NCBI GenBank assembly: GCA_020054495.1
Contig: JAHWGK010000002.1
Span: 16,418-80,417, forward strand
Direction: 5' to 3'
Origin: Thermoplasmata archaeon
GTDB lineage: Archaea; Thermoplasmatota; E2; DHVEG-1
DNA: 64,000 nt
Shown piece after piece: positions 3,849 through 62,539 of this stretch. Every line of letters begins with the position of its first letter. Position 1 is the stretch's first letter. The notes under the pieces were generated by a model. It was given only the letters and a program-made list of their open reading frames with translations, ran no database searches and was not told the DNA's origin. Both the position numbers and the translations under genes were made by a program.

Positions 3849-4499
3849 TTATGTAATTAGTCGATCAAGGGCCTTATATCCTCTAATGACATCTTTTTCA
3901 TCAACAATAAAAGTGATTTCGAAATCAATTGAAATAACTTCAATGATGTTGATGTTCTCCCAGGCAAAATTTCGAATAATTTGAAATAATACTCCTGGAA
4001 TATTAACTAATTTTTTACCAATGCTAAAAGATAAGGATACAAGGTTATCTTCTATGCTAAATATTCTTTCGTTTTGTAAAAAATTACATATTTTGTCTTT
4101 ATAACGTTCATTAGTAATAATATTAACCGAGTTTCTCCCATAGATTATGTGAAGAATATCCCCTTTTTCAAATTTGATGACGTCATATATTCGTTTTAGT
4201 TTATCAAACAAACCTGGAGTCTTTTGAACATTAATGTCAATAACATTTGTTTTTACGTTTACCTCTGAAGAACCAGCATCAAACTTAATTTCTTTAAATT
4301 TAACAATCATTTTTTCGGCATATCTTCGAATTGCTGCTACAATTGCATAATGCGCAACTTCCTTTCTTAATTCTTCTTCAATCTCTGATTTAAGTTGTTT
4401 TGCTACAGAACCATATGAAGCGATTCCTTTTCCTATTGCCTCTTGCAGATATATATTCTCGTCAACAAGTTTATTGACAACATGGGCTATTGTAACCAT
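3849..4499 (-). CDS. ACT-domain-containing regulatory protein (paralog of 15991..16641)
   Basis: 216 aa. C-terminal half resembles ACT/aspartokinase regulatory domains (GVLFQIIRNFAWENINIIEVIS...RGYKAL). About 35-40% identical to the 15991..16641 product. Confidence 0.45.
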   Translation of the reverse strand: MVTIAHVVNKLVDENIYLQEAIGKGIASYGSVAKQLKSEIEEELRKEVAHYAIVAAIRRYAEKMIVKFKEIKFDAGSSEVNVKTNVIDINVQKTPGLFDKLKRIYDVIKFEKGDILHIIYGRNSVNIITNERYKDKICNFLQNERIFSIEDNLVSLSFSIGKKLVNIPGVLFQIIRNFAWENINIIEVISIDFEITFIVDEKDVIRGYKALDRLIT

Positions 4500-5322: not shown

Positions 5323-5952
5323 TTATAAACCTGCAGCTGCTATTATAAAGGTGAATCCAAAATACATGAGAACTATTCCAAATATAATCATTAGAGGCTT
5401 ATACCATTTTAATCCCATAACATTTGTTCCTTTTTTTGATAAATAAGCAACTCCAGTTAGCCAAACATAATCCATCCATACATGAAATATGAACATAAAT
5501 ACTACACCAAGCAAAGCAGCAAGCTCAAGAGCTATTACTATTAATTGAGCTCCTACTGTCAACCACCACAAAATAAAATAAGGATTCAAACCTGTAAAAG
5601 CCAAACCAATTAGAAATAAATGTCGATAAACCGACTTTGGTTCTTTTAATTCTTCAGGTTTAAAAATAATTGAGTTTTTTATTTGAATAGCCCCAAATAC
5701 AATAAGCACAATTCCTCCTGTAAATCCAATGGCTATCTTTACCATTGGTTCACTTGCAACTGTAAGTAGCCCAAGTGCAAGTAGCATTATGAGTAAGAAT
5801 TCAACAACAGAATGTGCAATCGAGAATACAAGACCGGTTTTCGCACCATACTTGGTTCCATGTGATATTGTTGCGAAAAACAAAGGACCTGGTGCGAGGG
5901 CACCTGAAGCAGTTAATACTACTATGGTTACAATGAAACCAATTATTTCCAT
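5323..5952 (-). CDS. LysE/RhtB family amino-acid exporter
   Basis: 209 aa, six predicted TM helices. LysE-type N-terminus (ALAPGPLFFATISHG). Confidence 0.7.
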   Translation of the reverse strand: MEIIGFIVTIVVLTASGALAPGPLFFATISHGTKYGAKTGLVFSIAHSVVEFLLIMLLALGLLTVASEPMVKIAIGFTGGIVLIVFGAIQIKNSIIFKPEELKEPKSVYRHLFLIGLAFTGLNPYFILWWLTVGAQLIVIALELAALLGVVFMFIFHVWMDYVWLTGVAYLSKKGTNVMGLKWYKPLMIIFGIVLMYFGFTFIIAAAGL

Positions 5953-13110: not shown

Positions 13111-14535
13111 CTAAATGTTTGTACTGATAGGGTTACTAGTACCTCCGCCTATTGTTAAACTTGGATCACCAAGAAGAGTCCATTCTTGAACGGTTTTTGC
13201 ATCAATAGAGTGAACTCCTCCAGAGGGTGTTTCCCAATCGATTGGGAAGGTGTCCACATAGCGGCTCAATGCATTTTTCCATATCTGACCAAGAATCACT
13301 GTATCATCTGCATATTCCTTAAAGAATTGCACATTAAGCCAATCTGTTCCACCACCGCCAAATTCAACTCCATACCAAGCTAAACCAGTGGCTCCAAGAG
13401 TTGCAATTGAACCACCATTTGGCTTACTGACTAACTGCCAACTCCAGCATTCTTTCAACCATTTTTGAGGACTCCAGGTTTTAATAAAATTAAACGATGC
13501 AACAGAAAATTCACTGTTGTGACATCCACCAACAAGACAGACTGGAAGTTTATGCTGGTTAGATAAAAACAATAAATTATAGCTATAAAGTCTGCCTAAA
13601 GGAGTTTTTTCAGGTATAAAGGTGTAGGTAACCCAGGCACCTGTACTGCCATGACCAGATAAATACCAAAATCCACATCCCTTGTTTACTTCTCTTATTA
13701 TATTCCAACCATTTTTTGTTAATTCACCGTTTGATGCCCAGAGTTTAATAGGAATAAAATCCTCCATAGCATCAACAGCTCGTTGGTTATTTATCTCACC
13801 TTCATAACCTTCGAATTCTTCATATGTATCTCCACCAACAACAACCATTCTTTTAAACCAAGAAGGATCAGCAGGTTGTTTTTCATAATTGATAATCTTA
13901 TTCACCACAATTTCTACTTCTGATTCATCCACACATGCTAATCTACCAAGACAAACATCAGGAGTAAGATTGATAGGTCTGTCTTCAGCTATCTCACCGT
14001 CCCATTCACCATAAATCTCATCACCGTCAGAATCCCAACTGCAAAAATCACCAACATCATCGTAAATATCTGCATAATAAAGTTCACTGATAAACTTTAG
14101 TTCCAGGTTCTTTGAATAATTATCATTATTATAGCAATAACGAACAGGTATTTGCTTAATGCTTCCAACGAAAAGTACATAGGTAATATGCCAGTTTTCT
14201 ATTGCATCTTTAATGAAGTATTTTATTTTCTCTTGATTATCACGGCCTTGCACTTCAAAATACGAGCCGCTATAAATATCGTCAAGTGAAACAAACTTTG
14301 TTATTATTCCAAGATTAGTTTTATGTTCAATAAAAGGCTCAAGACTTGAATTATAGCTTAATGGAGCAATGATAATCATATCATAATTATCAAGAGCTAT
14401 GGATTTTGAATTATCTTGAAAAATTGTAAAAGGTCGACTCAATCGTATATGACCTGCATCTACAACCATTGGTACAATCGATGTTAACAACAATAGTAAT
14501 ACCAAAAATATTATCCTTACTATCTTTTTTTGCAT
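13111..14535 (-). CDS. secreted clan-CD cysteine peptidase, C25 (gingipain)-like
   Basis: Start reassigned to MQKKIVRIIFLVLLLL (signal peptide, SD GGGGG upstream). SGHG and GGCHNSE His/Cys motifs in a caspase-like arrangement. Confidence 0.55.
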   Translation of the reverse strand: MQKKIVRIIFLVLLLLLTSIVPMVVDAGHIRLSRPFTIFQDNSKSIALDNYDMIIIAPLSYNSSLEPFIEHKTNLGIITKFVSLDDIYSGSYFEVQGRDNQEKIKYFIKDAIENWHITYVLFVGSIKQIPVRYCYNNDNYSKNLELKFISELYYADIYDDVGDFCSWDSDGDEIYGEWDGEIAEDRPINLTPDVCLGRLACVDESEVEIVVNKIINYEKQPADPSWFKRMVVVGGDTYEEFEGYEGEINNQRAVDAMEDFIPIKLWASNGELTKNGWNIIREVNKGCGFWYLSGHGSTGAWVTYTFIPEKTPLGRLYSYNLLFLSNQHKLPVCLVGGCHNSEFSVASFNFIKTWSPQKWLKECWSWQLVSKPNGGSIATLGATGLAWYGVEFGGGGTDWLNVQFFKEYADDTVILGQIWKNALSRYVDTFPIDWETPSGGVHSIDAKTVQEWTLLGDPSLTIGGGTSNPISTNI

Positions 14536-14626
14536 AGTTCTTACCCCCGTATGTGTTATAGAAAGAAGTATTATTAATAAATATCTATAAAAATTAAAAT
14601 TACTATTTATTAAAAATCCCTTGCAT

Positions 14627-15748
14627 TCAATGAAACATAACACTTTCAATTTCACTAATGTTTAACAATCCCCGTAGTTCCTCATCTGAAACAGTTCCTT
14701 TTTCTTTTGACTTCACGTAGCGCATTATTCTGGTGATATTATCATTATTAGTAGAAACGCCAATCTGTTGCAGTTTTTGTTTAATCGTTTGTATACTAGC
14801 CATCTTGTCTAAGATAAATTTTCTATTTCTTCCTACAAGCTCGGCAGGAAATACTTCATAATACGAAGGATCATGAAGAACAGCTGCAACATGCAAGCCT
14901 GCATTATGTACAAAAGCATTTTTCCCAACAACAGGAGTATTCGGTGAAATATTTATTCCAGAAAATTCCGATACCTTTTGTGATATTTTTGAAATCATTT
15001 CTAGTTTCCAGTTGTTTTTTACACAATAGAGCGAATGCAACGCAAGACAAAGTTCTGAAAGCGGAGTAATTCCTACTCTTTCGCCTAATCCATTAACTGA
15101 TACATCAATCATTGTCACTCCAGCTTCATAGGCTGCCAATGCATTTGCTGTAGCAAGGCCTAAATCGTTATGACAATGGGCGTTAAATTTTACTTTTATT
15201 TCAGATTGCAAACTTTTTATAAGATCATACATTCTTGTAGGAGTTACTGCTCCAACTGTATCTGCTATACTTATTCTATCCGCACCTGCTTCAACAGCTG
15301 CTCTAGATACTTTAATTAAAGAGGTAAAGTCTGTCCTAATAGCATCTTCAGGAGTATATCTAACTTTTAATCCATAGTCTTTTGCATACTCAATTGTCTC
15401 TGTTATTAGATCAGTAACTTTATTTATATTTGATCTGAATTGTTGTTCGAGTCTACGGTTTGAAACACAGAAAAATATACCAACCCAATCCACATTGCAA
15501 GATCTAGCGACATCTATGTCTTCTTTTATTGCTCTACAATGAGCCAATATTTCTGCATTATACCCCTGATTAGATATCTCTTTGACTCCTCTAAAAATAT
15601 CCTTAGATACCCTTGGGTGACCTGCCTCTATTATATCTACTCCAAACTCATCTAGTAAACTAGCAATTGTGAGCTTTTCTTCTACACTAAAGGTTATACC
15701 CGGAGTTTGTTCACCTTCCCTAAGTGTAGAGTCAAGTATTTCAACCAC
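14627..15748 (-). CDS. homocitrate synthase / 2-isopropylmalate synthase family (short form, no LeuA regulatory domain)
   Basis: 373 aa. ILDSTLREGEQTPG, HCHNDLGLATANALAA. GTG start 15 nt downstream of the lysW stop, in the same frame. Confidence 0.85.
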   Translation of the reverse strand: MVEILDSTLREGEQTPGITFSVEEKLTIASLLDEFGVDIIEAGHPRVSKDIFRGVKEISNQGYNAEILAHCRAIKEDIDVARSCNVDWVGIFFCVSNRRLEQQFRSNINKVTDLITETIEYAKDYGLKVRYTPEDAIRTDFTSLIKVSRAAVEAGADRISIADTVGAVTPTRMYDLIKSLQSEIKVKFNAHCHNDLGLATANALAAYEAGVTMIDVSVNGLGERVGITPLSELCLALHSLYCVKNNWKLEMISKISQKVSEFSGINISPNTPVVGKNAFVHNAGLHVAAVLHDPSYYEVFPAELVGRNRKFILDKMASIQTIKQKLQQIGVSTNNDNITRIMRYVKSKEKGTVSDEELRGLLNISEIESVMFH

Positions 15749-15763
15749 TTGTTCACCTATATT

Positions 15764-15910
15764 TCATTCTTCTGATGGCCCCAAATGCAAACCAACTAGA
15801 TGATCTCCAGTAACTTCCATTTCAGTACCACATCCAGGGCAATCAACTACTGCTCCCTGCTCTGGATTTTGTAGATCTATTCTTGTACTACATTCTGCAC
15901 ATTCAAACAT
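15764..15910 (-). CDS. lysW: LysW-like alpha-aminoadipate/amino-group carrier protein (48 aa)
   Basis: Manual translation: MFECAECSTRIDLQNPEQGAVVDCPGCGTEMEVTGDHLVGLHLGPSEE. Two CxxC pairs and an acidic C-terminus ending in Glu, as in Thermus LysW. Not in the ORF track (below 60 aa). Confidence 0.7.
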   Translation of the reverse strand: MFECAECSTRIDLQNPEQGAVVDCPGCGTEMEVTGDHLVGLHLGPSEE

Positions 15911-15990
15911 AATATTATCGTTAAAATATCAACAATAAGTTATATATATACTTAATGTGATTATAATCACAAAATTCGAGGGTATTTGTA

Positions 15991-16641
15991 ATGGTAACTG
16001 TGAGCCATATTGTCCAAAAATTGGTCAATGAAAGAGTTTTTATTCAAGAATCCATGAACAAAAAAATCATTTCATATGCATCATTAGCAAAACAACTACA
16101 ACCAGAGATAGAAGAAGAATTAGAAAAACCAGTTAAAAATCATGCAATAGAAATGGCTCTCCGCAGATATGCAGACCAACTACAAAAAAAACATAAAACC
16201 ATATCTTTTGATTATTCATCAGATATCATCATGAAAACACAAGTATGTGACATCTCAGTTTTACGTTCACCGATGTTACTTAAAAATTTAAAAAATTTTT
16301 ATAATATTGTACAACTTGAAAAAGGAGATATTCTTAATATTATACTTGGAAGTAACGAGGTAAGCATTGTCACAAACGAACGATATAAACAAAAATTTTG
16401 TGATATGCTAAAAAATGAAATTGTTCTTAATGTTGAAGAAGAACTTGTTTCCTTAACAATGACGCTTTCTAAAAACTTCCTCAACACACCAGGTGTCATA
16501 TTCAACATTATTCGTAACATCGCTTGGGATAATATCAACATTTTTGAAATCGTTTCAACAAATACTGAATTAACATTTATTATTCACAAAAAAGATGCTA
16601 TGAGAGGTTACAAAGCATTAGAAAAACTTATCCCTCAATAG
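15991..16641 (+). CDS. ACT-domain-containing regulatory protein (paralog of 3849..4499)
   Basis: 216 aa. Same architecture and conserved blocks (MVTxxHxVxKLV, NERYK, GYKALxxLI) as the 3849..4499 product. Divergent from lysW-HCS. Confidence 0.45.
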   Translation: MVTVSHIVQKLVNERVFIQESMNKKIISYASLAKQLQPEIEEELEKPVKNHAIEMALRRYADQLQKKHKTISFDYSSDIIMKTQVCDISVLRSPMLLKNLKNFYNIVQLEKGDILNIILGSNEVSIVTNERYKQKFCDMLKNEIVLNVEEELVSLTMTLSKNFLNTPGVIFNIIRNIAWDNINIFEIVSTNTELTFIIHKKDAMRGYKALEKLIPQ

Positions 16642-29817: not shown

Positions 29818-30372
29818 TCAAATATATCTATTTATATATACAAAATCATCTATAGGAATTCTTTCAGGTCTTTCTTTCTCGGCTTTTACCTGCTTCTCTG
29901 AAAGAACTGGGTCAATTTTATCTGAATGCTTACCCACAATTACAAGTGCAATAACATCAATATCCTCTGGAATATCAAGAATTTCTCTAGTTTTCTTTGG
30001 ACTATACCCTGCAATTGGATGAGCAACTAGCCCAAGCTCTGTTGCTCTTAGAATCATTGCTTCAGTAGCCATTCCAATATCAAATCGGTAGTAAATTCTA
30101 TCATGGATTACACAATCATCCTCTTGTTTTCCTATAACAACTATAATCATTGATGCCTTATAAGCCCAGACATTACCTGATGATAAAGCTTCATGCATTT
30201 TCTTAAGCATTTCTGGATCATAAACAAAAATATATCTCCAGGGTTGATTGTTAAAACAGGATGCTGTAATTTGAGTACATTCCGCTAAATCATTAATCAG
30301 ATCTTTTGTAATTTCAACAGGCTCCAAAGAGCGATAAGCTCTTCTTTTTCTAATTGTTTCCTTCACATCCAT
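29818..30372 (-). CDS. nitroreductase family protein
   Basis: Start moved to MDVKETIRKRRAYRSL (canonical nitroreductase N-terminus). The longer ORF would overlap the thioredoxin gene. Confidence 0.75.
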   Translation of the reverse strand: MDVKETIRKRRAYRSLEPVEITKDLINDLAECTQITASCFNNQPWRYIFVYDPEMLKKMHEALSSGNVWAYKASMIIVVIGKQEDDCVIHDRIYYRFDIGMATEAMILRATELGLVAHPIAGYSPKKTREILDIPEDIDVIALVIVGKHSDKIDPVLSEKQVKAEKERPERIPIDDFVYINRYI

Positions 30373-30382
30373 ACAAATGCGC

Positions 30383-30784
30383 CTAGGCATATCCCGTGAT
30401 ACCTGGGTCAACCCATGTTGTGTTTTTAGCACATTGAGGACCATGTTCAAGAGATTCCTCAACTGCTTTTTTCAATAACGATGGATACATTGCACCTGTC
30501 AGTTCATGAACAGGTTTGCCATTACAAAAAAACTTGAATGTTGGTGTACCCATAACTCCATATCTATTGGCAATAGTCAGATTTTCGGCAATATCAACCT
30601 TAGCAAAAATTATTTTTCCTTTATATTCCGATGCATATTCATTAAAATGCGGTTCCATTTGTTGACAAAAAGGACAAGTAGGGCTAGAAAACATTACTGC
30701 AACTGGTTTGTCTCCCTTTTCTACTGTTTTTTCCCAGTTGGAATCATCCAATTCAACAAGATTTTCAGAACTCATAATATTCAC
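30383..30784 (-). CDS. trx: thioredoxin
   Basis: 133 aa. CPFC active site in a Trx fold (VAVMFSSPTCPFCQQM). Confidence 0.8.
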   Translation of the reverse strand: MNIMSSENLVELDDSNWEKTVEKGDKPVAVMFSSPTCPFCQQMEPHFNEYASEYKGKIIFAKVDIAENLTIANRYGVMGTPTFKFFCNGKPVHELTGAMYPSLLKKAVEESLEHGPQCAKNTTWVDPGITGYA

Positions 30785-31255
30785 CTAATCCCCCTCTCTC
30801 AAAAATGTAAGAACTTCATTAATGTCAGGTAATTCTCCTAACTCATAAATTCTTACAAACTCAATTTCTTGATTTTCGTTTATAATAATATTAGCCCTAT
30901 CTGAAAAACCTTCTTCTTCTCTGAATAATCGGTATAGCTTTGCTACTTTTCCATGAGGCCAAAAATCAGAAAGAAATCTAGTATGCTTTATGCCAAGATT
31001 TTCAGCCCAGGCTTTTTTAGAAGGAATAGAATCAACGTTTATTCCAACTGCAACCATATTTAATTCTCCAAATTCCTTCCAATTATCTTCAAGTGATTGC
31101 ATCTGTTTAGCACACACACCAGTCCAAGCAAGGGGGTGGAATGATAGAAGAACCCATTTTCCTTTAAAATCAGATAACTTGAATTCCTTTTCATTCTGAT
31201 CATTCAAACTAAAATCAGGAGCTTTCTCTCCAGCTTCAAAACATTTTTTTTCCAT
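30785..31255 (-). CDS. peroxiredoxin-like (AhpC/TSA/redoxin family)
   Basis: 156 aa. WTGVC peroxidatic Cys context. Abuts the thioredoxin gene. Confidence 0.65.
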   Translation of the reverse strand: MEKKCFEAGEKAPDFSLNDQNEKEFKLSDFKGKWVLLSFHPLAWTGVCAKQMQSLEDNWKEFGELNMVAVGINVDSIPSKKAWAENLGIKHTRFLSDFWPHGKVAKLYRLFREEEGFSDRANIIINENQEIEFVRIYELGELPDINEVLTFLREGD

Positions 31256-31267
31256 ATTTAATGCCTC

Positions 31268-32119
31268 TTAAATCCATTCTTCCTTTAGAATATCTCCTTT
31301 AATTCCTACAACAATTGACTTAACCGGAATTTTTCTTGAAGCATTTTCAACAGCTTTTTTAGCAAGACCTAATAAACCACTGCAACATGGAACCTCCATA
31401 GTCATCACCGTAAGAGTATTGATATTTGCACCATCAATTAACTTAGTCAATTTATCTAAGTAAATTTCTTGATTAGAATCTAATTTTGGACATGCAATAG
31501 AAAGACTTCGACCTTTTAGATAATCTTTATGAAAATCGGCAATGGAATAACCAACACAATCAGCAACAAGTAAAACATCTTTATTCTTGAAATAGGGTGC
31601 ATTTGGGGGTACTAAATGAAGTTGAACTGGCCATTGCCTAAGTTGAGAACTCCGGGTTCCACTTTCTCCATTATCGCTTTTTTTTTCATCTGAAAAGTCT
31701 ATAACTCTTGAGCCAGGACATCCTTGAGGTGGATTAGTACACTTATCATCTGGTTTTTCATCAAGATCTATCTCCATTCCTTTTTCTTTTAAAACCTCTA
31801 AAGCGTCATTGTAATAACCTAATTCGCCATGATCTTTCAAATGCTTAAGATGTGCAATAATCGTGTTTTTACCAGCCTTTATGATATTTTCTCGCATTAC
31901 CTTTTTTTCATCATAAGGTTCCGCGTCTCGTTCCTCAGTACTCATTGCACCTTGTGGGCATTCGCCAACACATGCTCCTAGGCCATCGCAAAAAATATCA
32001 CTAATCAGTCTTGCTTTTCCATCAATTACTTGCAATGCTCCTTCAGGGCAATTTGGAATGCATAATCCACAGCCATTACACTTTTCTTCATCAATTTTAA
32101 TTATTTTTCTTTTTGCCAT
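31268..32119 (-). CDS. 4Fe-4S dicluster domain protein (HCP-associated)
   Basis: 283 aa. CNGCGLCIPNCP and CDGLGACVGECP ferredoxin motifs, plus extra Cys-containing C-domain. Confidence 0.65.
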   Translation of the reverse strand: MAKRKIIKIDEEKCNGCGLCIPNCPEGALQVIDGKARLISDIFCDGLGACVGECPQGAMSTEERDAEPYDEKKVMRENIIKAGKNTIIAHLKHLKDHGELGYYNDALEVLKEKGMEIDLDEKPDDKCTNPPQGCPGSRVIDFSDEKKSDNGESGTRSSQLRQWPVQLHLVPPNAPYFKNKDVLLVADCVGYSIADFHKDYLKGRSLSIACPKLDSNQEIYLDKLTKLIDGANINTLTVMTMEVPCCSGLLGLAKKAVENASRKIPVKSIVVGIKGDILKEEWI

Positions 32120-32129
32120 ACATATCTCC

Positions 32130-33752
32130 CTATGTAACTATTTGTAATACTGGAAGATCATTTTCGACTGTTGAATTTGGTCGTATGTTGAATTTCTCAA
32201 CCAAAACCTTTAACACATTTGGCGAGACAAATGCAGGTAGAGTTGGACCAAGCATAATATTTTTCACACCAAGTGATAAAAGTGTAAGTAATACCAAAAC
32301 TGCTTTTTGTTCATACCAGGCTATATTAAATGAAATCGGCAATTCATTAATACCAACTCCAAATGCTTCTGCAAGTTTTTGTGCTATGGCCACAAGAGAG
32401 TACGAATCATTGCACTGTCCGGCATCAATCACTCTAGGAATACCATCAATATCTCCAAGACCAAGTTTGTTATATCGATATTTAGCACACCCTGCAGTAA
32501 GGATCACTGTATCGTTTGATAGTGCCTTAGCAAAATCAGTATAATATTGTCGATTTTTTCTTCGGCCATCACATCCAGCCATAACTACAAACCGTTTTAT
32601 TTTACCTGATTTCACTGCCTCAACAATTTTATCTGCAAGATTTAATGTTGCTTTGTGGGCAAAACCTATAATTATCTCACCCTCCTCAATTTTTTCCGGA
32701 GGTGAACTCTTTTTTGCATGTTCAATGACCTCAGAGAAATCCTTAGAACCTCCCTCAATTCTATCAGGAATGTATTTCAAACCATCAAAACCGACAACAC
32801 CTGTCATATAAACTCTATCTTTATACGAATCTCTTGGAGGAACCAAACAATTTGTTGTCAGAAGAATAGGTCCATTGAATTTTTCAAACTCTTCTTTTTG
32901 TCTCCACCACGAACTACCATAGTTACCCACAAAATGAGAATATTTTTTAAACGCAGGATAAGCATTTGCAGGAAGCATCTCTCCATGAGTATAAACATCA
33001 ATACCAGTTCCTTCAGTTTGTTTAAGCAGTTCCTCTAAGTCCTTTAAGTCATGACCGCTGATAAGAATGCCTGGATTGCTACGCACTCCAATGTTTACTT
33101 TTGTTATTTCTGGATTGCCATATGCAGAAGTATTTGCATTATCAAGCATTGCCATAGTTTTTACACCCATCTCGCCACATCTCATTACAAGATTTATCAA
33201 TTCATCTATGGGCAATTCTTGTGTAGTGCTAACTAATGCCTCTTCAATAAACTTAAAAATTTCATTGTCTTTTTTTCCAAGTACATAAGCATGATCAGTG
33301 TATGCAGCCATTCCTTTTAATCCATAAGTTAGCAGCCAACGAAGTGACCTAATATCTTCATTTTCTGTGCTTAACACACCGATTGTTTCTGCTTTTTTTA
33401 AGATATCTTCCTCGTCATCATATTGCCAGGTTACAGCATCATGTTGAGAGTCAACTGAGACGTTTTCCTTTATTTTCTCTCGTAATTCTATTGCTTCTTG
33501 AATTTTATCAAAAAAATGGTTTTTATTAAAATTAGCATTTGTAATTGTTGAGAACAAACCAGCCATGATAAATTCATCTGCTTCTTTAGTATTCTTTCCT
33601 TGTTTTCTTGCTTCGATGTTGCAAATAGATATCCCTTTCATTAGATATATTAAAAGATCCTGTAAATTTGCTACATCACCTTGTTTACCGCAAGCACCAG
33701 CATTTGTACAACCTTTATTATTTATTGTTTCTTCGCATTGATAACAAAACAT
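32130..33752 (-). CDS. hcp: hybrid cluster protein / hydroxylamine reductase
   Basis: Start set at MFCYQCEET (canonical HCP N-terminal Cys cluster). The longer ORF overlaps the AhpD gene. Confidence 0.9.
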
Positions 33753-33756
33753 TTCT

Positions 33757-34086
33757 TCACCTCGAAAACTCATCAAGAGCTTTTTTGACTTCAACGATAT
33801 AAATCATAGCTGGGCCACCACCCATGAGTATCGCTACGCCAGCAACCTCTAAGATTTCTTCTTTGGTGGCACCTACTTTAAGGGCTTTTTCTACATGAAT
33901 AGCAATACAATATTTACACCGAGCAGTTATTGCCGTTCCAACTGCAACAAGTTCTTTTGTTTTAGTATCTAGAACTCCTTCTTTGAGAACTGAGCCCATA
34001 AATGCTTTAAAATGCCTCAAAGTTTCCGGTTGTTGTTTTGATAATTCACCCATCATTTCCATTACGCTATCCACGGATTTTTTCAT
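33757..34086 (-). CDS. carboxymuconolactone decarboxylase family / AhpD-like alkylhydroperoxidase
   Basis: 109 aa. CxxCxxxH motif (RCKYCIAIH). Confidence 0.8.
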
Positions 34087-34116
34087 TTAATTCAAATTTA
34101 TCACCTATTTCAAAAT

Positions 34117-34497
34117 TCAACTGGACTTCCACAGCCCATGTACATTACAGTACTCTCTAGCATCTATTGCATCTGCTTTTATTTCAAACTCAGCCTGTGG
34201 TTTGTCACCAGGTTTTAGAAACTTTCTATAAGCAGCACCATCAGCAATTATTTGTATCCATTCAATGTGGTGTTCTTCGATCATTGGGTGATCTTGGTTT
34301 TGACCAACCTTGACAAGAACTCCATTAGAAGTCTTTTCAATATAAGGGACATGTTTTTCAACAGTAGAATCCTCAGTTTTTTCTTCCATAAGTTTCATAG
34401 GTTCTCCACAACATACGAGTTCCCCAACACCAGCATGTAAAACTTCAACAATATTTCCACAAATATTACATTTGTAGATTTCTCTAATTTTTACCAT
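34117..34497 (-). CDS. dfx: desulfoferrodoxin (2Fe superoxide reductase)
   Basis: N-terminal desulforedoxin module ([12 protein letters not shown]...CCGEPM). SOR domain with HVPYIE...H and CNVHGLW. Start at ATG 34497, with GGAGG 8 nt upstream. Confidence 0.85.
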
Positions 34498-34516
34498 AAT
34501 TTCTACCTCCAAAATT

Positions 34517-34900
34517 TCATTTTTTCTTTTTTTTATAGTCTTTTATAGCCTCATGTAATGCATCAGCAGCTAAATTGGAGCAATGCATCTTTTGAGGAGG
34601 AAGGCCATCAAGTTCGTCAGCCACATCATTACGAGTTATTTTAATTGCATCATCAACATGTTGTCCTTTAGCTAGTTCAGTAACCATACTACTTGTAGCA
34701 ATTGCAGACCCACATCCAAAGGTTTTGAACTTGATATCAGTAATAATGTCGTCTTTTACCTTGATGTATATCTCCATTAAATCCCCACAGACTGGGTTTC
34801 CAACTTTTCCATATCCATCTGGGTTCTCTATCACCCCTACATTTTTTGGATTCATAAAATGCTCCATTACTTTCTCACTATATCCTGGAATTTTTATCAC
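34517..34900 (-). CDS. iscU: IscU/NifU-type Fe-S cluster scaffold
   Basis: 127 aa. Three conserved Cys ([15 protein letters not shown]). Confidence 0.85.
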
Positions 34901-34906
34901 CTCTTA

Positions 34907-36061
34907 TTATGTCAACGGTGAAAGTTGTCTCAGTCTTTGAACTGTTTCTTTCACCCCTTTTACAATAACTGGTACTTGTTCTCTTTTATTTGAACGGCCG
35001 AGGGTCATTACCATCGATCCATGAGCCTCTTCATGTTTCAAGCCTATTGCAAGTAGAACATGAGATGGCTCTAATGTTTTATGGGAACAAGCTGAACCAG
35101 TTGCTATTTGAATATTATACATATCCATATTCAACAATATGCTTTCACCTTCTATATAGCTAAAACGAAAACTGGCATGATGCGGAAGTCTCTTTGTAGG
35201 ATGACCTGTTAAATAGGTGTCTTCGATCTTCAATATCTCCTTGATAAGCTCATCTCTAATTTTTTTGAGTCTCTCACTTTCATTTTTCATTTCTTTTTGG
35301 GCAATTCTAGCTGCTTCCCCCATTCCAACTATCGCAAATACATTTTCAGATCCAGACCTTAAACCTCGTTCCTGCCCACCGCCGAGAAGAACTGATTGAA
35401 CCTTAACACCTGGTTTTATATAAAGTGCAGCAGCTCCTCTTGGACCATAAAGGTCATTGGATGATAAAGTCAAAAGATCAATTCCATCCTCCTGCACATC
35501 AATAGGTAAACGCCCTGCAGCAGCTGTTGCATCAACATGCAAATATCGCCCTTTTTCATGAACAATTTTACTAACCTCCTTAATTGGTTCAATTGTACCA
35601 ATCTCATTATTTGCATACATAAGAGAGGTAACTGTCGTGTTTTTTGTTAAAAGGCTTTCAAGTATTTCAAGATTAATGATACCATATGGGTCAACTGGAG
35701 CTACATTAAATGTAAAACCATTTTTCTGAAGTTCTTTCATAGGATTAATAACTGAGATATGATCTATGGCACTAGCAAGAACTTCTTTTCCATCTCTTAT
35801 ATTCCTAAGTGCTGTTCCTCTTAAAGCAAGATTGTTAGATTCAGTCGCACTCCCTGTAAAAATAATTGATTTTTCATTCTCTGCATTGATAAACTCTGCA
35901 ATTTTTTTCCTAGACTCTTCAATAGCGTTTTTTATCTCTAAACCAATTGAATAAAGAGAGGAGGGATTTGCATAATCCTTTATTAGATAAGATTTTGCAA
36001 ATTCAAATACCCGTGGATCAACAGGCATTGATGATGCATGGTCTAAATAAATTCTTTCCAT
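34907..36061 (-). CDS. iscS: cysteine desulfurase (IscS/NifS, class V aminotransferase)
   Basis: Start at MERIYLDHAS with GAGGAAA SD. PLP-Lys region (SSNDLYGPRG) and active-site Cys (SACSHK). Confidence 0.9.
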   Translation of the reverse strand: MERIYLDHASSMPVDPRVFEFAKSYLIKDYANPSSLYSIGLEIKNAIEESRKKIAEFINAENEKSIIFTGSATESNNLALRGTALRNIRDGKEVLASAIDHISVINPMKELQKNGFTFNVAPVDPYGIINLEILESLLTKNTTVTSLMYANNEIGTIEPIKEVSKIVHEKGRYLHVDATAAAGRLPIDVQEDGIDLLTLSSNDLYGPRGAAALYIKPGVKVQSVLLGGGQERGLRSGSENVFAIVGMGEAARIAQKEMKNESERLKKIRDELIKEILKIEDTYLTGHPTKRLPHHASFRFSYIEGESILLNMDMYNIQIATGSACSHKTLEPSHVLLAIGLKHEEAHGSMVMTLGRSNKREQVPVIVKGVKETVQRLRQLSPLT

Positions 36062-36071
36062 ATTTTCCTCT

Positions 36072-36434
36072 TTAAAACCACATAGTTGCACCCGCGTCAA
36101 GAGCGAGATCATTTAAGGTTCCTGCACCAACTATTTTTACCCCAGGTATTAGATTAATTTTTTCCAAGCCAAGCATTTGCTTTGATGCTTCACACACATA
36201 AATCTCAATTCCCATGTCAAGGGTTTTTTTAATCATCTCGGCAACACTAGGGAAATTACCAAGTTTGATTTTTTCAGCTTCGCCAGCCATTAATATTTTC
36301 AGACCAGTGCCAAGATAATAAATCATTGGTTTAATGTCCATCATCTTAGCTGTTTGTGCTAAAACCAAAGGCGAATATTGTTTTTTAGGCGCATCAGTTG
36401 TTTGCACATATAATATAGAATTTTCGTCTTTCAT
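36072..36434 (-). CDS. DsrE/DsrF-like sulfur-relay family protein
   Basis: 120 aa, DsrE/YchN fold pattern (conserved Cys in VCEASKQ). Confidence 0.65.
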   Translation of the reverse strand: MKDENSILYVQTTDAPKKQYSPLVLAQTAKMMDIKPMIYYLGTGLKILMAGEAEKIKLGNFPSVAEMIKKTLDMGIEIYVCEASKQMLGLEKINLIPGVKIVGAGTLNDLALDAGATMWF

Positions 36435-36445
36435 TAAATTTCACC

Positions 36446-36697
36446 TCATTTCATTCTTTTAATATAGAAGGTCAAGATTGTACCTTCTTTTTCAAATTTT
36501 AATATTTCGTGACCTGTTCTTTTAGCCCACCGTTTAATATCCTCTTCAGCGGCAGGATCATCAGCTTCGACTTTTAATACTTGCCCAACTTCAATTTTAT
36601 CAATTTCTTCCTTTGTCATTGCAATGGGCATAGGGCAATAGTATCCAATACAGTCCAATTCAGCATCAGCAACAATGTCTGAACTCAGATTATACAC
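36446..36697 (-). CDS. tusA: TusA-like sulfurtransferase
   Basis: 83 aa with CPxP motif (CIGYYCPMP). Confidence 0.8.
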   Translation of the reverse strand: MYNLSSDIVADAELDCIGYYCPMPIAMTKEEIDKIEVGQVLKVEADDPAAEEDIKRWAKRTGHEILKFEKEGTILTFYIKRMK

Positions 36698-36703
36698 CTC
36701 TCA

Positions 36704-37213
36704 TTAATTCCCCAAATAATCTAATTCAAACCAGTAACCAGTACTATTTATGTGGTGGAATTCTCCCTCAAGAACGTTATAGTGGTTCTTTTCTTGGTTA
36801 ATGATTTCATCAATGATTTCATTAATCTGATCGTCTTTAGAATTTTCTCTTATTTTTGTATAATATTCAATAGCGTCTTTTTCACTATCCATTGCCATTC
36901 GTAAGGCATCAATTTCATTTGTATCGGGGTTTGCTCCTTCCACTGTCTGTAGATCTTTTGGGAATATTGGAATATCAGCATATTTTTTACTAGTATTTGT
37001 AAGATCATACCATTCCGTTTTTCCAATTTTTTCGTCAAATATTTTTTGAAAAATTTCAAGATGCAAAAGTTCATCAGCAGCTAGGCTTTTAAAGACAGAT
37101 TTGCCCATTTCACTTGAGGTCTGAGCCGCTGCTTTTTGATAAAAGGAATAGCCGGCTTTTTCCATTTGAATAGCAGTTTTAATTGCATCTTTCACATTTT
37201 CAATTTCTGTCAT
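36704..37213 (-). CDS. rubrerythrin-family ferritin-like diiron protein (no rubredoxin domain)
   Basis: 169 aa with ExxH pairs (ELLHLEIF, QEKNHYNVLE). Confidence 0.6.
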   Translation of the reverse strand: MTEIENVKDAIKTAIQMEKAGYSFYQKAAAQTSSEMGKSVFKSLAADELLHLEIFQKIFDEKIGKTEWYDLTNTSKKYADIPIFPKDLQTVEGANPDTNEIDALRMAMDSEKDAIEYYTKIRENSKDDQINEIIDEIINQEKNHYNVLEGEFHHINSTGYWFELDYLGN

Positions 37214-37232
37214 TTATCTTCACCATTTTTTT

Positions 37233-37808
37233 TTAGTAATTCTCCATCCAAATTTCGCAATAACTTTGTTTATGTTGACATGCAGGGCATACATCAGGGG
37301 CTTCTTCTCCTTCGTAAACATATCCACAGTTCCGGCATTTCCATTTGATAACTTTGTCTTTTTTGAAAGCTCGATTTTTATTTACATTATCAAGTAGTTT
37401 TCTAAATCTTCTTTCATGATAAGCTTCTACTTTACCTATCTCCCTAAAACTATGAGCAACCATAGGAAATCCTTCATCCTCCGCAGCCTTTGCAAAATCT
37501 GGATAAAGCGTTCCCCATTCCATTTTTTCACCTTCTGCTGCAGCATGTAAGTTTTCAGCAGTCGTTCCTATTACACCTGCGGGGTATCCTGCAATAATTT
37601 CAACATCTCCGCCTTGAAGGTGTTTGAAAAAGACTTCAGCATGCTCCTTTTCATTGTCAGCTGTTTCTTGAAATATTGCTGCAATCTGTTCATATCCTTC
37701 TTTTTTGGCTTTTGAAACAAAAAATGTATATCTGTTTCTAGCCTGTGATTCTCCAGCAAATGCTGCAAGAAGATTTTTTTCAGTTTTTGTTCCTTTGATG
37801 CTTTTCAT
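37233..37808 (-). CDS. rbr: rubrerythrin
   Basis: 191 aa. Ferritin-like diiron domain plus C-terminal rubredoxin CRNCGY...CPACQH. Confidence 0.9.
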   Translation of the reverse strand: MKSIKGTKTEKNLLAAFAGESQARNRYTFFVSKAKKEGYEQIAAIFQETADNEKEHAEVFFKHLQGGDVEIIAGYPAGVIGTTAENLHAAAEGEKMEWGTLYPDFAKAAEDEGFPMVAHSFREIGKVEAYHERRFRKLLDNVNKNRAFKKDKVIKWKCRNCGYVYEGEEAPDVCPACQHKQSYCEIWMENY

Positions 37809-37832
37809 TTTTTTTCCTCCAATTCAATCAAA

Positions 37833-38324
37833 TTAAGGACCCACATGAACCATGGGCCAATACACATCACCTTCTTCAAAACGTTCCATACTTTCTTTTT
37901 CCATTTTAAGAATTTTATAATGGCCAATTTCCATATCTGAAAAATACAACAGAGTATTATGTATCTTATTTCCAGTCTCAAATCGAGTTGCTAGAGATTT
38001 GTAAAATTCACTTGCGGATTGTTCTGCATTCATTGCTTGAGTTAATAATTTACTTAAAGGGGTGTCTTCAGTAAACTCTACTTCAGGTAGTGGAACTGGC
38101 GTTTTCTTAGGCAAAACTAACTCGTTTTCAGGAAAATGATTTGCATAAATTTCCTCAATAAATTTTCTATGCTTATTTTCTTCCTTAGCAAGAAATTCCA
38201 GTTTATCCTTTAATAATCCATTTTTTGTTTTTGTCGCCATTTTTAAATAAAGCTGGTGGCTATCTTCCTCACTCTTTATTGCAGCGAGAAATAAATCTTC
38301 TAGATCATAACTACTTAAATCCAT
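37833..38324 (-). CDS. rubrerythrin-like ferritin-domain protein
   Basis: 163 aa ferritin-like four-helix-bundle pattern (EENKHRKF, EIGHYKIL). Confidence 0.55.
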   Translation of the reverse strand: MDLSSYDLEDLFLAAIKSEEDSHQLYLKMATKTKNGLLKDKLEFLAKEENKHRKFIEEIYANHFPENELVLPKKTPVPLPEVEFTEDTPLSKLLTQAMNAEQSASEFYKSLATRFETGNKIHNTLLYFSDMEIGHYKILKMEKESMERFEEGDVYWPMVHVGP

Positions 38325-38357
38325 TTTATTTCACCTAAATATAGTTATTTTTTCTCC

Positions 38358-38894
38358 TTATTTTATATTCTCAGCATGCAAATCAAGGTGATCAGTTTCT
38401 ATCTCAACTAATTCAGCAAAAAATTCTTTTAACCTTGGTTCTGTTGCCTCATCTCTAAATTTTGCATATGCTTTTATTGCACGATCCTCTCGTTCCCAGC
38501 CTTCTTTTGAATTTTCTTTTGCATTTGCATTACATAATTGTTTCCCTAGTTCAGGCCTAGAGATTTTTAAGAATTTAGAGATAACAGAAGCATGTTCACG
38601 TTCGACTTTCATTAAAGCTTTGAACTTTGCTAAACTGTAATGGTCACTTGCTTTATCTGCAGCATTTTTTGCACAATCATAAAACGCAGCATTATCTAAC
38701 TCAAGTTGCAAGGCAGCCTCAAGATTCTTGCGTGATATATCGCTTAACAATACGTTGAATTCATCTAGATTCCAATCCTTTGCTTCAACGAAAAATCTTT
38801 TTTGCGCACCGCAAAATGGACATTGAGTTGGTGCTTCAGATCCAATGTATGGATCACCACATATTCTACATCTAAATACCTTTATCTTAGCCAT
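38358..38894 (-). CDS. reverse rubrerythrin (N-terminal rubredoxin + C-terminal diiron domain)
   Basis: 178 aa. N-terminal FRCRICGDPY...CPFCGA, followed by ferritin-like domain (EREHASV, IETDHLDLH). Confidence 0.8.
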   Translation of the reverse strand: MAKIKVFRCRICGDPYIGSEAPTQCPFCGAQKRFFVEAKDWNLDEFNVLLSDISRKNLEAALQLELDNAAFYDCAKNAADKASDHYSLAKFKALMKVEREHASVISKFLKISRPELGKQLCNANAKENSKEGWEREDRAIKAYAKFRDEATEPRLKEFFAELVEIETDHLDLHAENIK

Positions 38895-38920
38895 TCAACT
38901 TCCACCATCACAAATTTATT

Positions 38921-39076
38921 CTATTTTATTCGTTTCATTGGCACGCCACAACAATAGGGTGCTGCCTTTGGTTCTTCATCAAATTCTATAATGCTACAAC
39001 TACAATCCTCTGCTGAACATTCGCATTCATATTGTATTGGCTTGTCTGCTTCTTTACAACCACAACTTTTACACAT
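38921..39076 (-). CDS. Cys-rich small protein (51 aa, 11 Cys; desulforedoxin-like CCGVPM motif)
   Basis: Manual translation MCKSCGCKEADKPIQYECECSAEDCSCSIIEFDEEPKAAPYCCGVPMKRIK. GGGAGG SD 9 nt upstream of the ATG. Not in the ORF track. Confidence 0.4.
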   Translation of the reverse strand: MCKSCGCKEADKPIQYECECSAEDCSCSIIEFDEEPKAAPYCCGVPMKRIK

Positions 39077-39109
39077 TTTTCCATACCTCCCTTATATTTA
39101 ACATATTTC

Positions 39110-40171
39110 TCATTTCTTTTTAATTTTTACTAACCTTTTTCCAATTTCTTTAGCTTTTTTTAACTCATTTTGATCGGGAACATAGTTAATATTAATGCTA
39201 TCTAAAGGAAAATCCCAAGATACTTCCTTTAGAATTTTTTCTATTTCACTAACCGCCTGGCCGCCCCAACCATAGGATCCAAAAACTAAACCTATTCGAT
39301 TTTTAGGTTTAAGACCTTTGAGATATGTTAGGAAACCACCCATTGACGGAAGCATTGAATTATTAAACGTAGGAGATCCTATCAGTATATATTTCGAAGT
39401 AATTACATCTGTTATTACATCTGAAATATGGGATGTTTTTAGATCCCTAATAGCAACTGGAATACCTGCTTCTTCGATACCTTCTCGAAGTGAATAAGCT
39501 ATTTTTTCTGTTGAACCCCACATAGAATCGTAAACAATCAATGCTTTATTTTCAGTTTCATATCGGGCCCATTTCGTATATTCTTTGAGGATTTGTGGAA
39601 TCAATGAACGCCATATTATTCCATGGCTTGGTGCAATCATATCGATGTCAAGTCCAGAAATAGCTTCAAGAGCCTTTTCTACTTGACGACCATAAGGCAT
39701 TACGATATTTGCATAATACTTCGCCGCCTCCTCCTTCAAAATCCCCCATTCAATTTCATCATCAAAGCGCCCTGAACTTGCTATATGTTGTCCAAAAGCA
39801 TCATTTGGAAGAAGAAGTTTATCACTGGGAATGTATGTTACCATGGAATCTGGCCAATGAACCATTGGTATTTCAACAAAATGAAGTGTTCTTTTACCTA
39901 TATTGAGTGTATCACCAGATTTTACTACTTTAAAGTTCAAGTCTTTTTTGTAGTGTCTTTTAAGTCCTTTTTCTCCTCTTGTTGAAGTTATAACTGTTGC
40001 ATTTGGACAGAATTCAAGAATTTTTAGTATAGAACCAGAGTGATCCATTTCAACATGGTTTGATATAATATAATCTATCTTTGAAGGATCTGCGATTTCT
40101 TTAATTCTAGTAAGCATTTCATCAAAAAGATAGTGTTTTACTGTATCTACTAATGTTATTTTTTTATCCAT
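39110..40171 (-). CDS. fprA: flavodiiron protein (FprA-type; MBL-like diiron domain + flavodoxin domain)
   Basis: NHVEMDHSG diiron motif, flavodoxin domain (IVYDSMWGSTEKIA). The conserved FDP N-terminus continues in frame upstream to 40288 without ATG/GTG/TTG (see findings). Confidence 0.8.
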   Translation of the reverse strand: MDKKITLVDTVKHYLFDEMLTRIKEIADPSKIDYIISNHVEMDHSGSILKILEFCPNATVITSTRGEKGLKRHYKKDLNFKVVKSGDTLNIGKRTLHFVEIPMVHWPDSMVTYIPSDKLLLPNDAFGQHIASSGRFDDEIEWGILKEEAAKYYANIVMPYGRQVEKALEAISGLDIDMIAPSHGIIWRSLIPQILKEYTKWARYETENKALIVYDSMWGSTEKIAYSLREGIEEAGIPVAIRDLKTSHISDVITDVITSKYILIGSPTFNNSMLPSMGGFLTYLKGLKPKNRIGLVFGSYGWGGQAVSEIEKILKEVSWDFPLDSININYVPDQNELKKAKEIGKRLVKIKKK

Positions 40172-40293
40172 AATTAGGTAAGCATTATACGTTGTACCAC
40201 GGTTTGTTGAGTATCCATGGAAATTACGAATATTCCAGTCAATACCACCGACCCAATAAATATCCTGCTTTATGTCAACCTTATTCAGCTAAA

Positions 40294-40989
40294 TCACTCC
40301 TTTTCAAAATCTTCTTTTCTAGCTCCACAGACCGGACAAACCCAGTCCTCAGGAACATCTTCAAATTTTGTCCCAGGTGCTACTCCATTATCTGGGTCTC
40401 CTTTTTCAGGCTCATATACATAACCACACACTTTGCAAACATATTTGTCCATTTTCTTTTCCTCCTTTTTTCTTGCTCTATCTACTTCGCCACTATAAGT
40501 TGGGGCTGTTTTTGGTGAATATCCTCCTTTTACTTTATGATAAAACTCATAAGTCATTGGTTTTTCTTCAGAAAGTACTTCTGCATCCTCTACATTACCA
40601 ATAAAAATCGTATGTGTGCCAACATCGATTTTATCTATTAATTTCGTTTCTAAGCATGCAAGAGCATAATCTAAAACAAGTGGTACTTTGCTGTTCCCTA
40701 GCTTAAATTCAACGTCCTTAAATTTATCAATATCTCTTCCAGATTTAAACCCAAAATTTCCAATGAAAGTTAATGGTGCTTTTTCTGAAAGAATTGACAC
40801 TGTGAAGCATTTACTTTTTTCTATGTATTCATGTGTTAAATTCTGTTTATTAATACTAACTGCAATTGTCGGTGGTTCAGATGTAATTTGAAATAAAGCA
40901 TTTGCAATCTGCCCATTTATTTTTTCACCTTCTTTTGAACAGACGATGTATAAACCATATGATATTTTATGTAATGTTTTAGGATCCAT
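40294..40989 (-). CDS. hrb: high-molecular-weight rubredoxin (flavin reductase domain + C-terminal rubredoxin), Hrb-like
   Basis: 231 aa. Flavin reductase-like split-barrel N-domain. C-terminal CKVCGY...CPVCGA. Classic partner of FprA. Confidence 0.8.
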
Positions 40990-62485: not shown

Positions 62486-62539
62486 AAGTATACTCCCTTC
62501 TGAATAATATAAAACGTTCATGCAGCGAAAAGAATTCAC

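Follow-up and report, generated by a model that had tools for sequence, protein, structure and literature searches.

A stretch of 64,000 nucleotides from a Thermoplasmata archaeon (GenBank assembly GCA_020054495.1, contig JAHWGK010000002.1, positions 16,418 to 80,417 of the forward strand; hereafter, the window, whose first nucleotide is position 1) contains a gene of 48 amino acids (aa) related to lysW, which encodes the amino-group carrier protein of the prokaryotic α-aminoadipate (AAA) pathway of lysine biosynthesis. The original prediction, made from the sequence alone, had described this gene as an unannotated lysW directly upstream of, and in frame with, a gene for homocitrate synthase (HCS), and had pointed out that its product lacks the usual C-terminal EDWGE tail. 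The features of the locus are as follows.

14627–15748, minus strand: HCS, 373 aa, GTG start, no extra regulatory domain.
15749–15763, minus strand: spacer of 15 nt between the stop codon of the lysW-like gene and the GTG of HCS, with a Shine–Dalgarno-like motif, GGTGA, at 15753–15757.
15764–15910, minus strand: truncated lysW ortholog, 48 aa, MFECAECSTRIDLQNPEQGAVVDCPGCGTEMEVTGDHLVGLHLGPSEE, ATG start, TGA stop, C-terminus ...LHLGPSEE.
15940–15950, minus strand: TATA-like box TATATATATAA, approximately 30–40 nt upstream of the lysW-like ATG and directly downstream of the palindrome.
15957–15970, no strand assigned: perfect 14-bp palindrome GTGATTATAATCAC in the divergent intergenic region, the single occurrence in the window.
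15991–16641, plus strand: divergent gene encoding ACT216, a protein of 216 aa with an N-terminal four-helix domain and tandem ACT domains.

The open reading frame (ORF) at 15764–15910 agrees exactly with the earlier description in both sequence and translation. It is a real gene, far beyond a chance ORF, and a homologous 48-aa gene is present in the JGI and ENA gene calls. The zinc-ligand set of the peptide is formed by two CxxC pairs, C4/C7 and C24/C27, and the four cysteines are invariant in 20 out of 20 aligned family members, as well as across the classic (ending in EDWGE) and truncated types; zinc-binding cysteines, four or three of them, are a criterion for LysW (PMC10433800). According to Pfam, residues 3–43 match PF21344, the model of the LysW globular domain (42.7 bits at a gathering score of 27, E = 4e-11), whereas both NCBIfam cut-offs for LysW are missed (36.6 vs. 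53.2 bits for TIGR01206, lysW, and 24.1 vs. 75 bits for NF041070, carrier_LysW_Arch), because the alignment covers residues 2–36 only. Hence, the profile check suggested for the gene succeeds with the Pfam domain and fails with TIGR01206. Among PDB sequences, the best matches of the family profile are TkLysW (Thermococcus) and TtLysW (Thermus), at positions 1–35 only. The AlphaFold (AF2) model of the peptide has a mean pLDDT of 85.5, falling to about 63 in the last eight residues, that is, a flexible tail is predicted; Foldseek ranks 1–6 for this model are all occupied by LysW chains (5eio_C, 3wwn_B, 3wwl, 5k2m_F/E, and 3vpb_E; probability 0.99–1.00, rmsd 0.5–2.1 Å).

Thus, membership in the LysW family is borne out by the Pfam domain, the fold, positional orthology (see below), and 56% full-length identity to classic LysW of Thermoplasmatota, equal to the closeness of the peptide to other members of the short type. 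The alternative that it is just a small, generic zinc-ribbon protein is excluded by the LysW-specific sequence, the fold, and synteny. Matches to DUF7560, HVO_2142, DmmA, and RNA polymerase subunit P were weak, all below threshold. The plain label “lysW” does not hold either: the NCBIfam cut-offs are missed, the carrier-defining motif is gone, and LysX, LysY, LysZ, LysJ, and LysK are found near none of 24 loci of this type (see below). The 48-aa protein is a LysW-family zinc ribbon, yet not a canonical LysW.

LysW-type amino-group carrier proteins are defined by the EDWGE tail, and, to our knowledge, every characterized one works with a LysX/ArgX ligase. The C-terminal Glu of EDWGE is covalently linked to AAA or glutamate, and the motif is recognized by GSWGR of LysX/ArgX (PMC10433800); therefore, the lost piece is the one that defines the carrier function. 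In the majority of the classic loci checked, LysX has GSWGR, and three of the four Thermoplasmatota sister loci are among them. The MAFFT alignment of short and classic sequences is gapless except for one single-residue column, and the short type halts exactly before EDWGE (...LQLGPSEE vs. ...LQFAPQEE followed by EDWGE); that the window peptide has GPSEE at its end in place of EDWGE had been noticed in the original prediction. In this alignment, the counterpart of the terminal Glu of the short type is a Glu in the linker of classic LysW rather than the attachment Glu.

A word-index search for relatives of the peptide yielded five close ones, every one ending in GLHLGPSEE. An exhaustive profile search over 1.84 billion cluster representatives was topped by about 15 clusters, mostly of 48 aa, ending in L(Q/H)LGPSEE or near variants (GLSEE, LPPCEE), with classic LysW (ending in EEDWGE) ranked lower. 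Related loci were collected by scanning GTDB species genomes and JGI metagenomes with a profile built from 12 sequences; the 160 loci returned, loci fetched earlier, and the window form the locus set, where individual loci are denoted by L and a number. This set comprises 54 loci of the short type (46 distinct peptides of 45–48 aa, 38–100% identical, none interrupted), 103 of the classic type, and six with other tails. EDWGE is missing from all 46 distinct short peptides, and no assembly among the returned loci has both types. The genome contigs with the short type are all labeled Thermoplasmatota or Thermoplasmatales, with one exception. This is a 5.3-kb contig, L013 (CAYTTK010000170.1), assigned by binning to “uncultured Pirellulales bacterium” and carrying the archaeal triad of ACT216, truncated lysW, and HCS together with a C25 peptidase; its bin label is probably due to misbinning. 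Comparison of orthologous loci therefore turns the odd tail of a single gene into a lineage-wide truncation by five residues, conserved in 54 loci, that travels with the replacement of the downstream lysXYZJK genes by HCS.

Judging from codon usage, the ...LGPSEE end is under clear purifying selection. The tail is represented by 45 distinct nucleotide sequences. All of them encode G(-5), E(-2), and E(-1), the last two being E47 and E48 of the window peptide, with all four Gly and both Glu codons in use, while L(-6), P(-4), and S(-3) are retained in 44 (with six different codons), 43, and 41 sequences, respectively. The C-terminal Glu characteristic of LysW is thus present throughout. Compared to classic LysW, the tail is shorter (13 vs. 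18 aa) and the protein less acidic (median net charge -7 vs. -15).

These data bear on the possibility that the ORF is a decaying relic with no protein function, persisting after the loss of lysXYZJK only by its place between the promoter and HCS, e.g., through translational coupling. It would agree with the loss of exactly the functional pentapeptide, the very short ORF, and the local absence of the canonical partners. On the other hand, there are 46 distinct uninterrupted peptides with four invariant Cys ligands and a length fixed at 45–48 aa, the new C-terminus varies least of all segments in spite of much synonymous change and three stop codons in use, and the peptide is intact in three loci without HCS downstream. 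A decaying relic thus seems very improbable.

The downstream gene does encode HCS, as had been proposed: its product scores 434.1 bits with the NCBIfam equivalog TIGR02146 (cut-off 413.55), has the Pfam domains HMGL-like and HCS_D2, and HCS accounts for all of its four best PDB sequence matches (6ktq, 3ivs, 2ztj, and 3a9i), ahead of isopropylmalate and citramalate synthases. HCS is immediately downstream of the peptide gene in 47 out of 50 short-type loci. The 15-nt spacer with GGTGA, a motif recurring in the peptide–HCS spacers of many related loci, points to tight operon coupling; truncated lysW heads the operon that it forms with HCS. In three loci, L086 (518–664), L098 (285–431), and L109 (10001–10144), an intact peptide with the full GPSEE tail has no HCS next to it; the ACT216 neighbor is kept in L086 and L109, and the upstream part of the L098 contig does not reach far enough to reveal it. 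L124 has HCS and is syntenic with L109 in other respects.

In the window, the peptide gene and HCS are in one frame, with the TGA of the former 15 nt upstream of the GTG of the latter; this had been correctly observed and taken as a hint that TGA may be recoded or read through to produce a LysW–HCS fusion protein. The hint is not borne out by the related loci. The stop codons in 45 distinct sequences are TAA (33), TGA (8), and TAG (4); the spacer varies from 1 to 21 nt over 50 loci, with frames 0, 1, and 2 in 15, 22, and 13 loci, respectively; many spacers hold further stops, e.g., TGAGATAGGTGAAAATAGATG; and HCS is preceded by a Shine–Dalgarno-like GGTGA of its own and has the conserved sequence M(V/I)EILD(S/T)TLREGEQ at its N-terminus. 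Readthrough or fusion is thus refuted and retains practically no probability, and the in-frame TGA of the window is, on this comparative basis, a coincidence.

In a subgroup with the ...LHLGPSEE end, a PhzF-like gene (isomerase/epimerase fold, 288–291 aa) has a 4-nt overlap with HCS at the stop codon of the latter, which points to translational coupling of the two (L091, 11278–12144; L089, 3910–4785; L099, 10686–11552; L172, 7767–8642). This gene was initially suspected to encode an ATP-grasp ligase, which was ruled out, as its product is PhzF-like.

The promoter region also bears on orthology. ACT216 is encoded divergently upstream of the peptide in 43 out of 43 loci with enough upstream sequence, and it shares 62–63% identity with its counterpart that precedes classic lysW in L008, L010, and L011. 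Its sequence weakly matches ACT and aspartokinase C-terminal domains, and its AF2 model (pLDDT 85.3) matches aspartokinase regulatory subunits with the Foldseek probability of 1.00. A degenerate form of the palindrome, combined with the TATA-like box, was found in 44 out of 45 distinct short-type upstream regions; the degenerate palindrome is also present in five out of six classic Thermoplasmatota loci with ACT216 and in none of the 84 other classic loci. Since ACT216 and the palindrome/TATA module are common to the short and classic loci, the 48-aa gene is the positional ortholog of lysW in this uncultured lineage of Thermoplasmatota. From its position and conservation, the TATA-like box is presumed to be the archaeal promoter of the lysW-like/HCS operon. 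The palindrome is a candidate operator and a candidate target of the ACT-domain protein, and ACT216 itself probably senses an amino acid and regulates the operon.

A paralog of ACT216 (53% identity) is situated near a LysE-type amino-acid exporter in the window (3849–4499 and 5323–5952, both on the minus strand), which suggests a small family of lysine-responsive regulators. The JGI label “aspartokinase” of some ACT216 family members looks like misannotation.

Gene neighborhoods of the short and classic types were compared by clustering neighboring ORFs and labeling the clusters with NCBIfam models: LysX was recognized by TIGR02144 at 347 bits, and LysY/ArgC, LysZ, LysJ, LysK, homoaconitase, and homoisocitrate dehydrogenase were labeled likewise. 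The counts were restricted to loci with at least 3 kb downstream, that is, 24 short-type and 73 classic ones. LysX is found nearby in 68 classic loci and in no short-type locus (Fisher p = 3e-18). The same holds for LysY, LysZ, LysJ, and LysK, found in 66, 64, 63, and 38 classic loci, respectively, and each in 0 out of 24 short-type ones. None of these five genes occurs within about 10 kb of the peptide in the 24 short-type loci, nor in a total of approximately 0.56 Mb of flanking DNA.

In the 64-kb window, tblastn with dozens of queries per family (E ≤ 1e-3) yielded no LysX, LysY, LysZ, LysK, homoaconitase, or homoisocitrate dehydrogenase, and the only LysJ-family match is a gene for L-lysine 6-transaminase (LAT) at 57568–58887; pathway genes were also not found by tblastn in the 6.8 kb past the right end of the window. 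When the window and the 53 related short-type loci were searched, the LysJ-like matches were LAT genes only, and the search near the peptide for LysX, LysY, LysZ, LysK, homoaconitase, and homoisocitrate dehydrogenase produced nothing except one homoisocitrate dehydrogenase-like gene, in L106. Hence, the original statement that the window has no other LysW-pathway genes is valid for LysX, LysY, LysZ, and LysK, but it had overlooked LAT, genes similar to lysine-ketoglutarate reductase (LKR) and saccharopine reductase, the LysE exporter, and two copies of the ACT protein.

The gene orders follow the same division. The classic order is lysW–HCS–hacA–hacB–homoisocitrate dehydrogenase–lysX–lysY–lysZ–lysJ in Methanofastidiosum and lysW–HCS–lysX–lysY–x–lysZ–lysJ in Ignavibacteria (x, another gene). 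In Thermoplasmatota with the classic tail (L008, L011, and L043), divergent ACT216 precedes lysW–lysX–lysY–lysZ–lysJ, in some cases followed by lysK, and in L010, it precedes lysW–lysX and then unrelated genes. In the short type, divergent ACT216 precedes the peptide gene and HCS, followed by variable genes. One locus has a particular arrangement: in L009 (11303–13307 and on), the peptide–HCS pair is followed by a second divergent ACT216 paralog (23% identity), and the next genes fall into clusters (c24 and c9) with genes located directly upstream of argW/lysW in haloarchaeal loci. Judging from size and position, these genes are putative argG and argH, and their order may have been left over from an ancestral gene order.

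Compared to LysW/ArgW of Thermus thermophilus, Sulfolobus, Thermococcus kodakarensis, and Natrinema gari, the truncated protein thus shares the zinc-ribbon fold with two CxxC pairs and the flexible, acidic tail with Glu as its last residue; when the globular domain is aligned structurally by Foldseek, it is 40–48% identical to LysW chains of known structure. Its gene is the first one of a lysine-pathway operon, right before HCS, as in the Methanofastidiosum and Ignavibacteria clusters, with the promoter and regulator module of the classic lysW of sister Thermoplasmatota. The differences are the loss of the five residues of EDWGE, the new invariant end LGPSEE, about half the acidity, the lack of LysX, LysY, LysZ, LysJ, and LysK nearby, and scores under both NCBIfam LysW cut-offs.

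The main rival of the interpretation offered below is that the carrier function is retained: an unlinked, co-adapted LysX/RimK-family ATP-grasp ligase would load AAA (or Glu) on Glu48, the kinase, reductase, and hydrolase would be encoded elsewhere, and LAT or LKR/saccharopine dehydrogenase (SDH) may replace LysJ. It is compatible with the Glu-Glu end in 45 out of 45 distinct tail sequences, the predicted flexibility of the tail (pLDDT about 63 in the last eight residues), similar to that of the LysW tail, and the net charge of the protein, which is still acidic (median -7). Moreover, RimK-family ligases generally act on acidic C-terminal Glu tails, those of S6, LysW, and tubulin among them (PMC10375531). 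However, the EDWGE motif recognized by GSWGR of LysX/ArgX is wholly gone, none of the five partner genes occurs within about 10 kb in 24 out of 24 loci (compare with LysX in 68 of the 73 classic loci), and a tail shorter by five residues and a less acidic globular domain would demand renewed adaptation of all five enzymes. The one HCS-coupled candidate, the 288-aa gene of the subgroup described above, is PhzF-like and not an ATP-grasp ligase. We consider this explanation rather doubtful. As to the RimK/ribosomal protein S6 system of C-terminal glutamylation, the likeness consists in a small protein with an acidic C-terminus ending in Glu-Glu, and the difference, in that no RimK-family gene was seen near any locus examined. 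The end of Escherichia coli S6, ...GDSEE, resembles GPSEE.

The lysine-related genes found in the window instead are the following.

57568–58887, minus strand: LAT-family L-lysine 6-transaminase, 439 aa, TIGR03251, 664.1 bits vs. the cut-off of 520.8.
61163–62539, minus strand: saccharopine reductase/saccharopine dehydrogenase (Sacchrp_dh type, LYS9-like, hereafter SDH-like), 458 aa by ORF, assigned with Pfam.
62540–63838, minus strand: LKR-like, lysine-ketoglutarate reductase/saccharopine dehydrogenase (AlaDh_PNT type), 432 aa, assigned with Pfam.

The LKR-like product matches the human AASS LKR domain over its full length (262 bits, residues 4–429), and the SDH-like one matches saccharopine reductases of Magnaporthe (1e5l, 320 bits) and yeast (2axq, 306 bits) in the PDB. 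In the window, these genes and LAT are about 41 kb away from the peptide–HCS pair. In L006, orthologs of the three genes (68, 75, and 79% identity for LKR, SDH, and LAT, respectively) directly follow HCS on the same strand, and in L105, the peptide gene, HCS, LKR, SDH, and LAT form a contiguous string on one strand with gaps below approximately 100 nt. L111 has a similar string, and the contigs of L102 and L139 end after the LKR gene; in all, HCS is followed by genes of this kind in five or six loci. LKR-like genes are near four out of 24 short-type loci with at least 3 kb downstream, whereas saccharopine-type genes were observed near none of the 73 classic ones. A PF09826 beta-propeller gene lies between the SDH-like gene and LAT in the window (59068–61017, minus strand), L006 (10221–12272), and L111 (12723–14870), with only about 40% identity; L105 has no such gene there.

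The two saccharopine steps are reversible, and LAT turns lysine into aminoadipate semialdehyde (PMC9854754); therefore, the direction of flux is not readable from the sequence. Co-transcription with the committed enzyme, HCS, as it appears from the gene order, would favor the biosynthetic reading. Alternatively, the neighborhood could be catabolic: LKR, SDH, and LAT would degrade lysine, and the lysW-like/HCS pair would be a separate biosynthetic or regulatory remnant, with the peptide, if it has a role at all, acting outside saccharopine chemistry, e.g., as a co-factor of the ACT regulator. Consistent with this, the LKR-like protein has its nearest match in the LKR domain of catabolic human AASS, LAT is classically catabolic, and the window contains genes for acyl-CoA dehydrogenases, thiolase, and acetyl-CoA synthetase, with gingipain-like peptidases adjoining the locus; further, saccharopine genes adjoin in only four out of 24 loci, and the sole neighbor in 43 out of 43 loci, including those without HCS, is ACT216. 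Against it, five genes, lysW-like, HCS, LKR, SDH, and LAT, are contiguous on one strand in L105, like strings are seen in L006, L102, L111, and L139, and co-transcribing the committed biosynthetic enzyme with degraders of its end product would be futile; LKR, SDH, and LAT are near 0 out of 73 classic lysW loci. This makes the catabolic explanation unlikely.

Two known systems may be compared with this gene string. As in the fungal AAA pathway (Lys20/21, Lys9, Lys1), HCS, a LYS9-like reductase, and a saccharopine dehydrogenase of the AlaDh_PNT type are combined, in some genomes within one string; unlike that pathway, no Lys2/Lys5-type aminoadipate reductase was found here, the host is an archaeon, the AlaDh_PNT enzyme resembles the animal LKR domain more than it does yeast Lys1, and LAT and the LysW-derived peptide, neither of them known from fungi, are present. 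The likeness to AASS (LKR/SDH) and LAT catabolism of animals, plants, and bacteria consists in the order of LKR and SDH, which mirrors the domain order of bifunctional AASS, in full-length matches to both human AASS domains, and in the LAT assignment above the curated cut-off. Here, in contrast, the genes are co-oriented and contiguous with HCS and the LysW-derived gene, and the promoter is shared with biosynthetic lysW operons.

In sum, the window encodes a LysW ortholog without EDWGE, and we propose that the end of the AAA pathway is rewired and that the peptide has a role independent of LysX; taken as a whole, this reading has, in our estimate, a probability of about one half. The second half of the AAA lysine pathway would have been rewired to a saccharopine-type (fungal-like) end, and truncated LysW would have ceased to be a canonical carrier loaded by LysX. 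Strong purifying selection is seen on the zinc ligands and on the precise C-terminal end, and therefore the protein presumably still acts through its flexible acidic tail. This tail ends in Glu-Glu, whose carboxylates would be free, and the peptide may act through that end; the mechanism we prefer is non-covalent docking of the tail into a partner that binds a C5-dicarboxylate. The likeliest candidate partner, given the predicted translational coupling, would be HCS, with the peptide as its small accessory or regulatory subunit. ACT216 probably senses lysine and may control the shared promoter.

Several observations weigh against the proposed rewiring. lysW precedes HCS in canonical clusters as well (Methanofastidiosum and Ignavibacteria), so that adjacency alone is no proof of an HCS–peptide complex, and three loci (L086, L098, and L109) keep an intact peptide without adjoining HCS. 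The new C-terminal residue is again Glu, compatible with retained carrier chemistry. The absence of LysX, LysY, LysZ, and LysK covers the locus flanks and the window, and copies may exist elsewhere in the genome. The direction of the pathway is supplied by operon logic and not by the sequence, LKR, SDH, and LAT being classically catabolic in bacteria and animals, and saccharopine genes adjoin in only four of the 24 short-type loci with enough downstream sequence. Finally, no enzyme reducing AAA to the semialdehyde (no Lys2/Lys5-type aminoadipate reductase) was identified in this analysis.

A wider and more tentative generalization, to which we attach a correspondingly lower probability, is that uncultured sediment Thermoplasmatota possess a third, undescribed version of the AAA pathway, in which a front of the prokaryotic type (HCS) and a saccharopine-type back (LKR-like and SDH-like), with or without LAT, replace the LysW–LysX/Z/Y/J/K route, and the former carrier is exapted via the ...GPSEE tail. 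The exapted role could be that of a small accessory or regulatory subunit of HCS or of another 2-oxoglutarate- or glutamate-binding enzyme, or of a carrier with a different ligase. In the literature searched, a limited library, we found neither an account of LysW lacking EDWGE nor a description of an archaeal cluster of HCS with saccharopine-type genes. If true, the proposed rewiring would for the first time hint that lysine biosynthesis in archaea can have a saccharopine end of the fungal kind, would provide a natural case of a repurposed carrier protein, and would be relevant to an old question, namely, how variants of the lysine and arginine pathways arose from one another. Annotation may miss the 48-aa gene or call it “LysW,” so that a LysW-dependent route would be missed or wrongly inferred in abundant sediment archaea. 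The palindrome and the ACT-domain protein would make up a putative archaeal amino-acid regulon that is open to testing.

Other odd tails of LysW-like zinc ribbons were also observed, for example, ...EEEK (Dojkabacteria), ...EEEEDEEW, and ...EEVDWGEYWGE (L053, 9992–10159; L058, 9983–10150; L157/L159/L160; P0037), and the Dojkabacteria loci with such tails have no adjoining LysX. Tail diversity in the LysW family may thus be wider than recognized. In L044 (9416–9838), the LysW N-terminus belongs to an ORF of 140 aa whose C-terminal part is unrelated, which may be caused by a frameshift, an assembly artifact, or a gene fusion.

Genes for Peptidase_C25 (gingipain-like) proteins recur beside the locus, in the window (13111–14655, minus strand) and in L001, L006, L007, L013, and L170, and the window also encodes several NosD/beta-helix and beta-propeller secreted proteins; both fit a protein-degrading sediment archaeon. 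Scans of the window for tRNA genes and Rfam families produced no matches. In the region 29818–41413 of the window, unrelated to the lysW-like gene, oxidative-stress and redox genes of the anaerobe kind are densely packed, with a hybrid-cluster protein, rubrerythrins, a flavorubredoxin-like protein, a rubredoxin fusion, and NifS/IscS.

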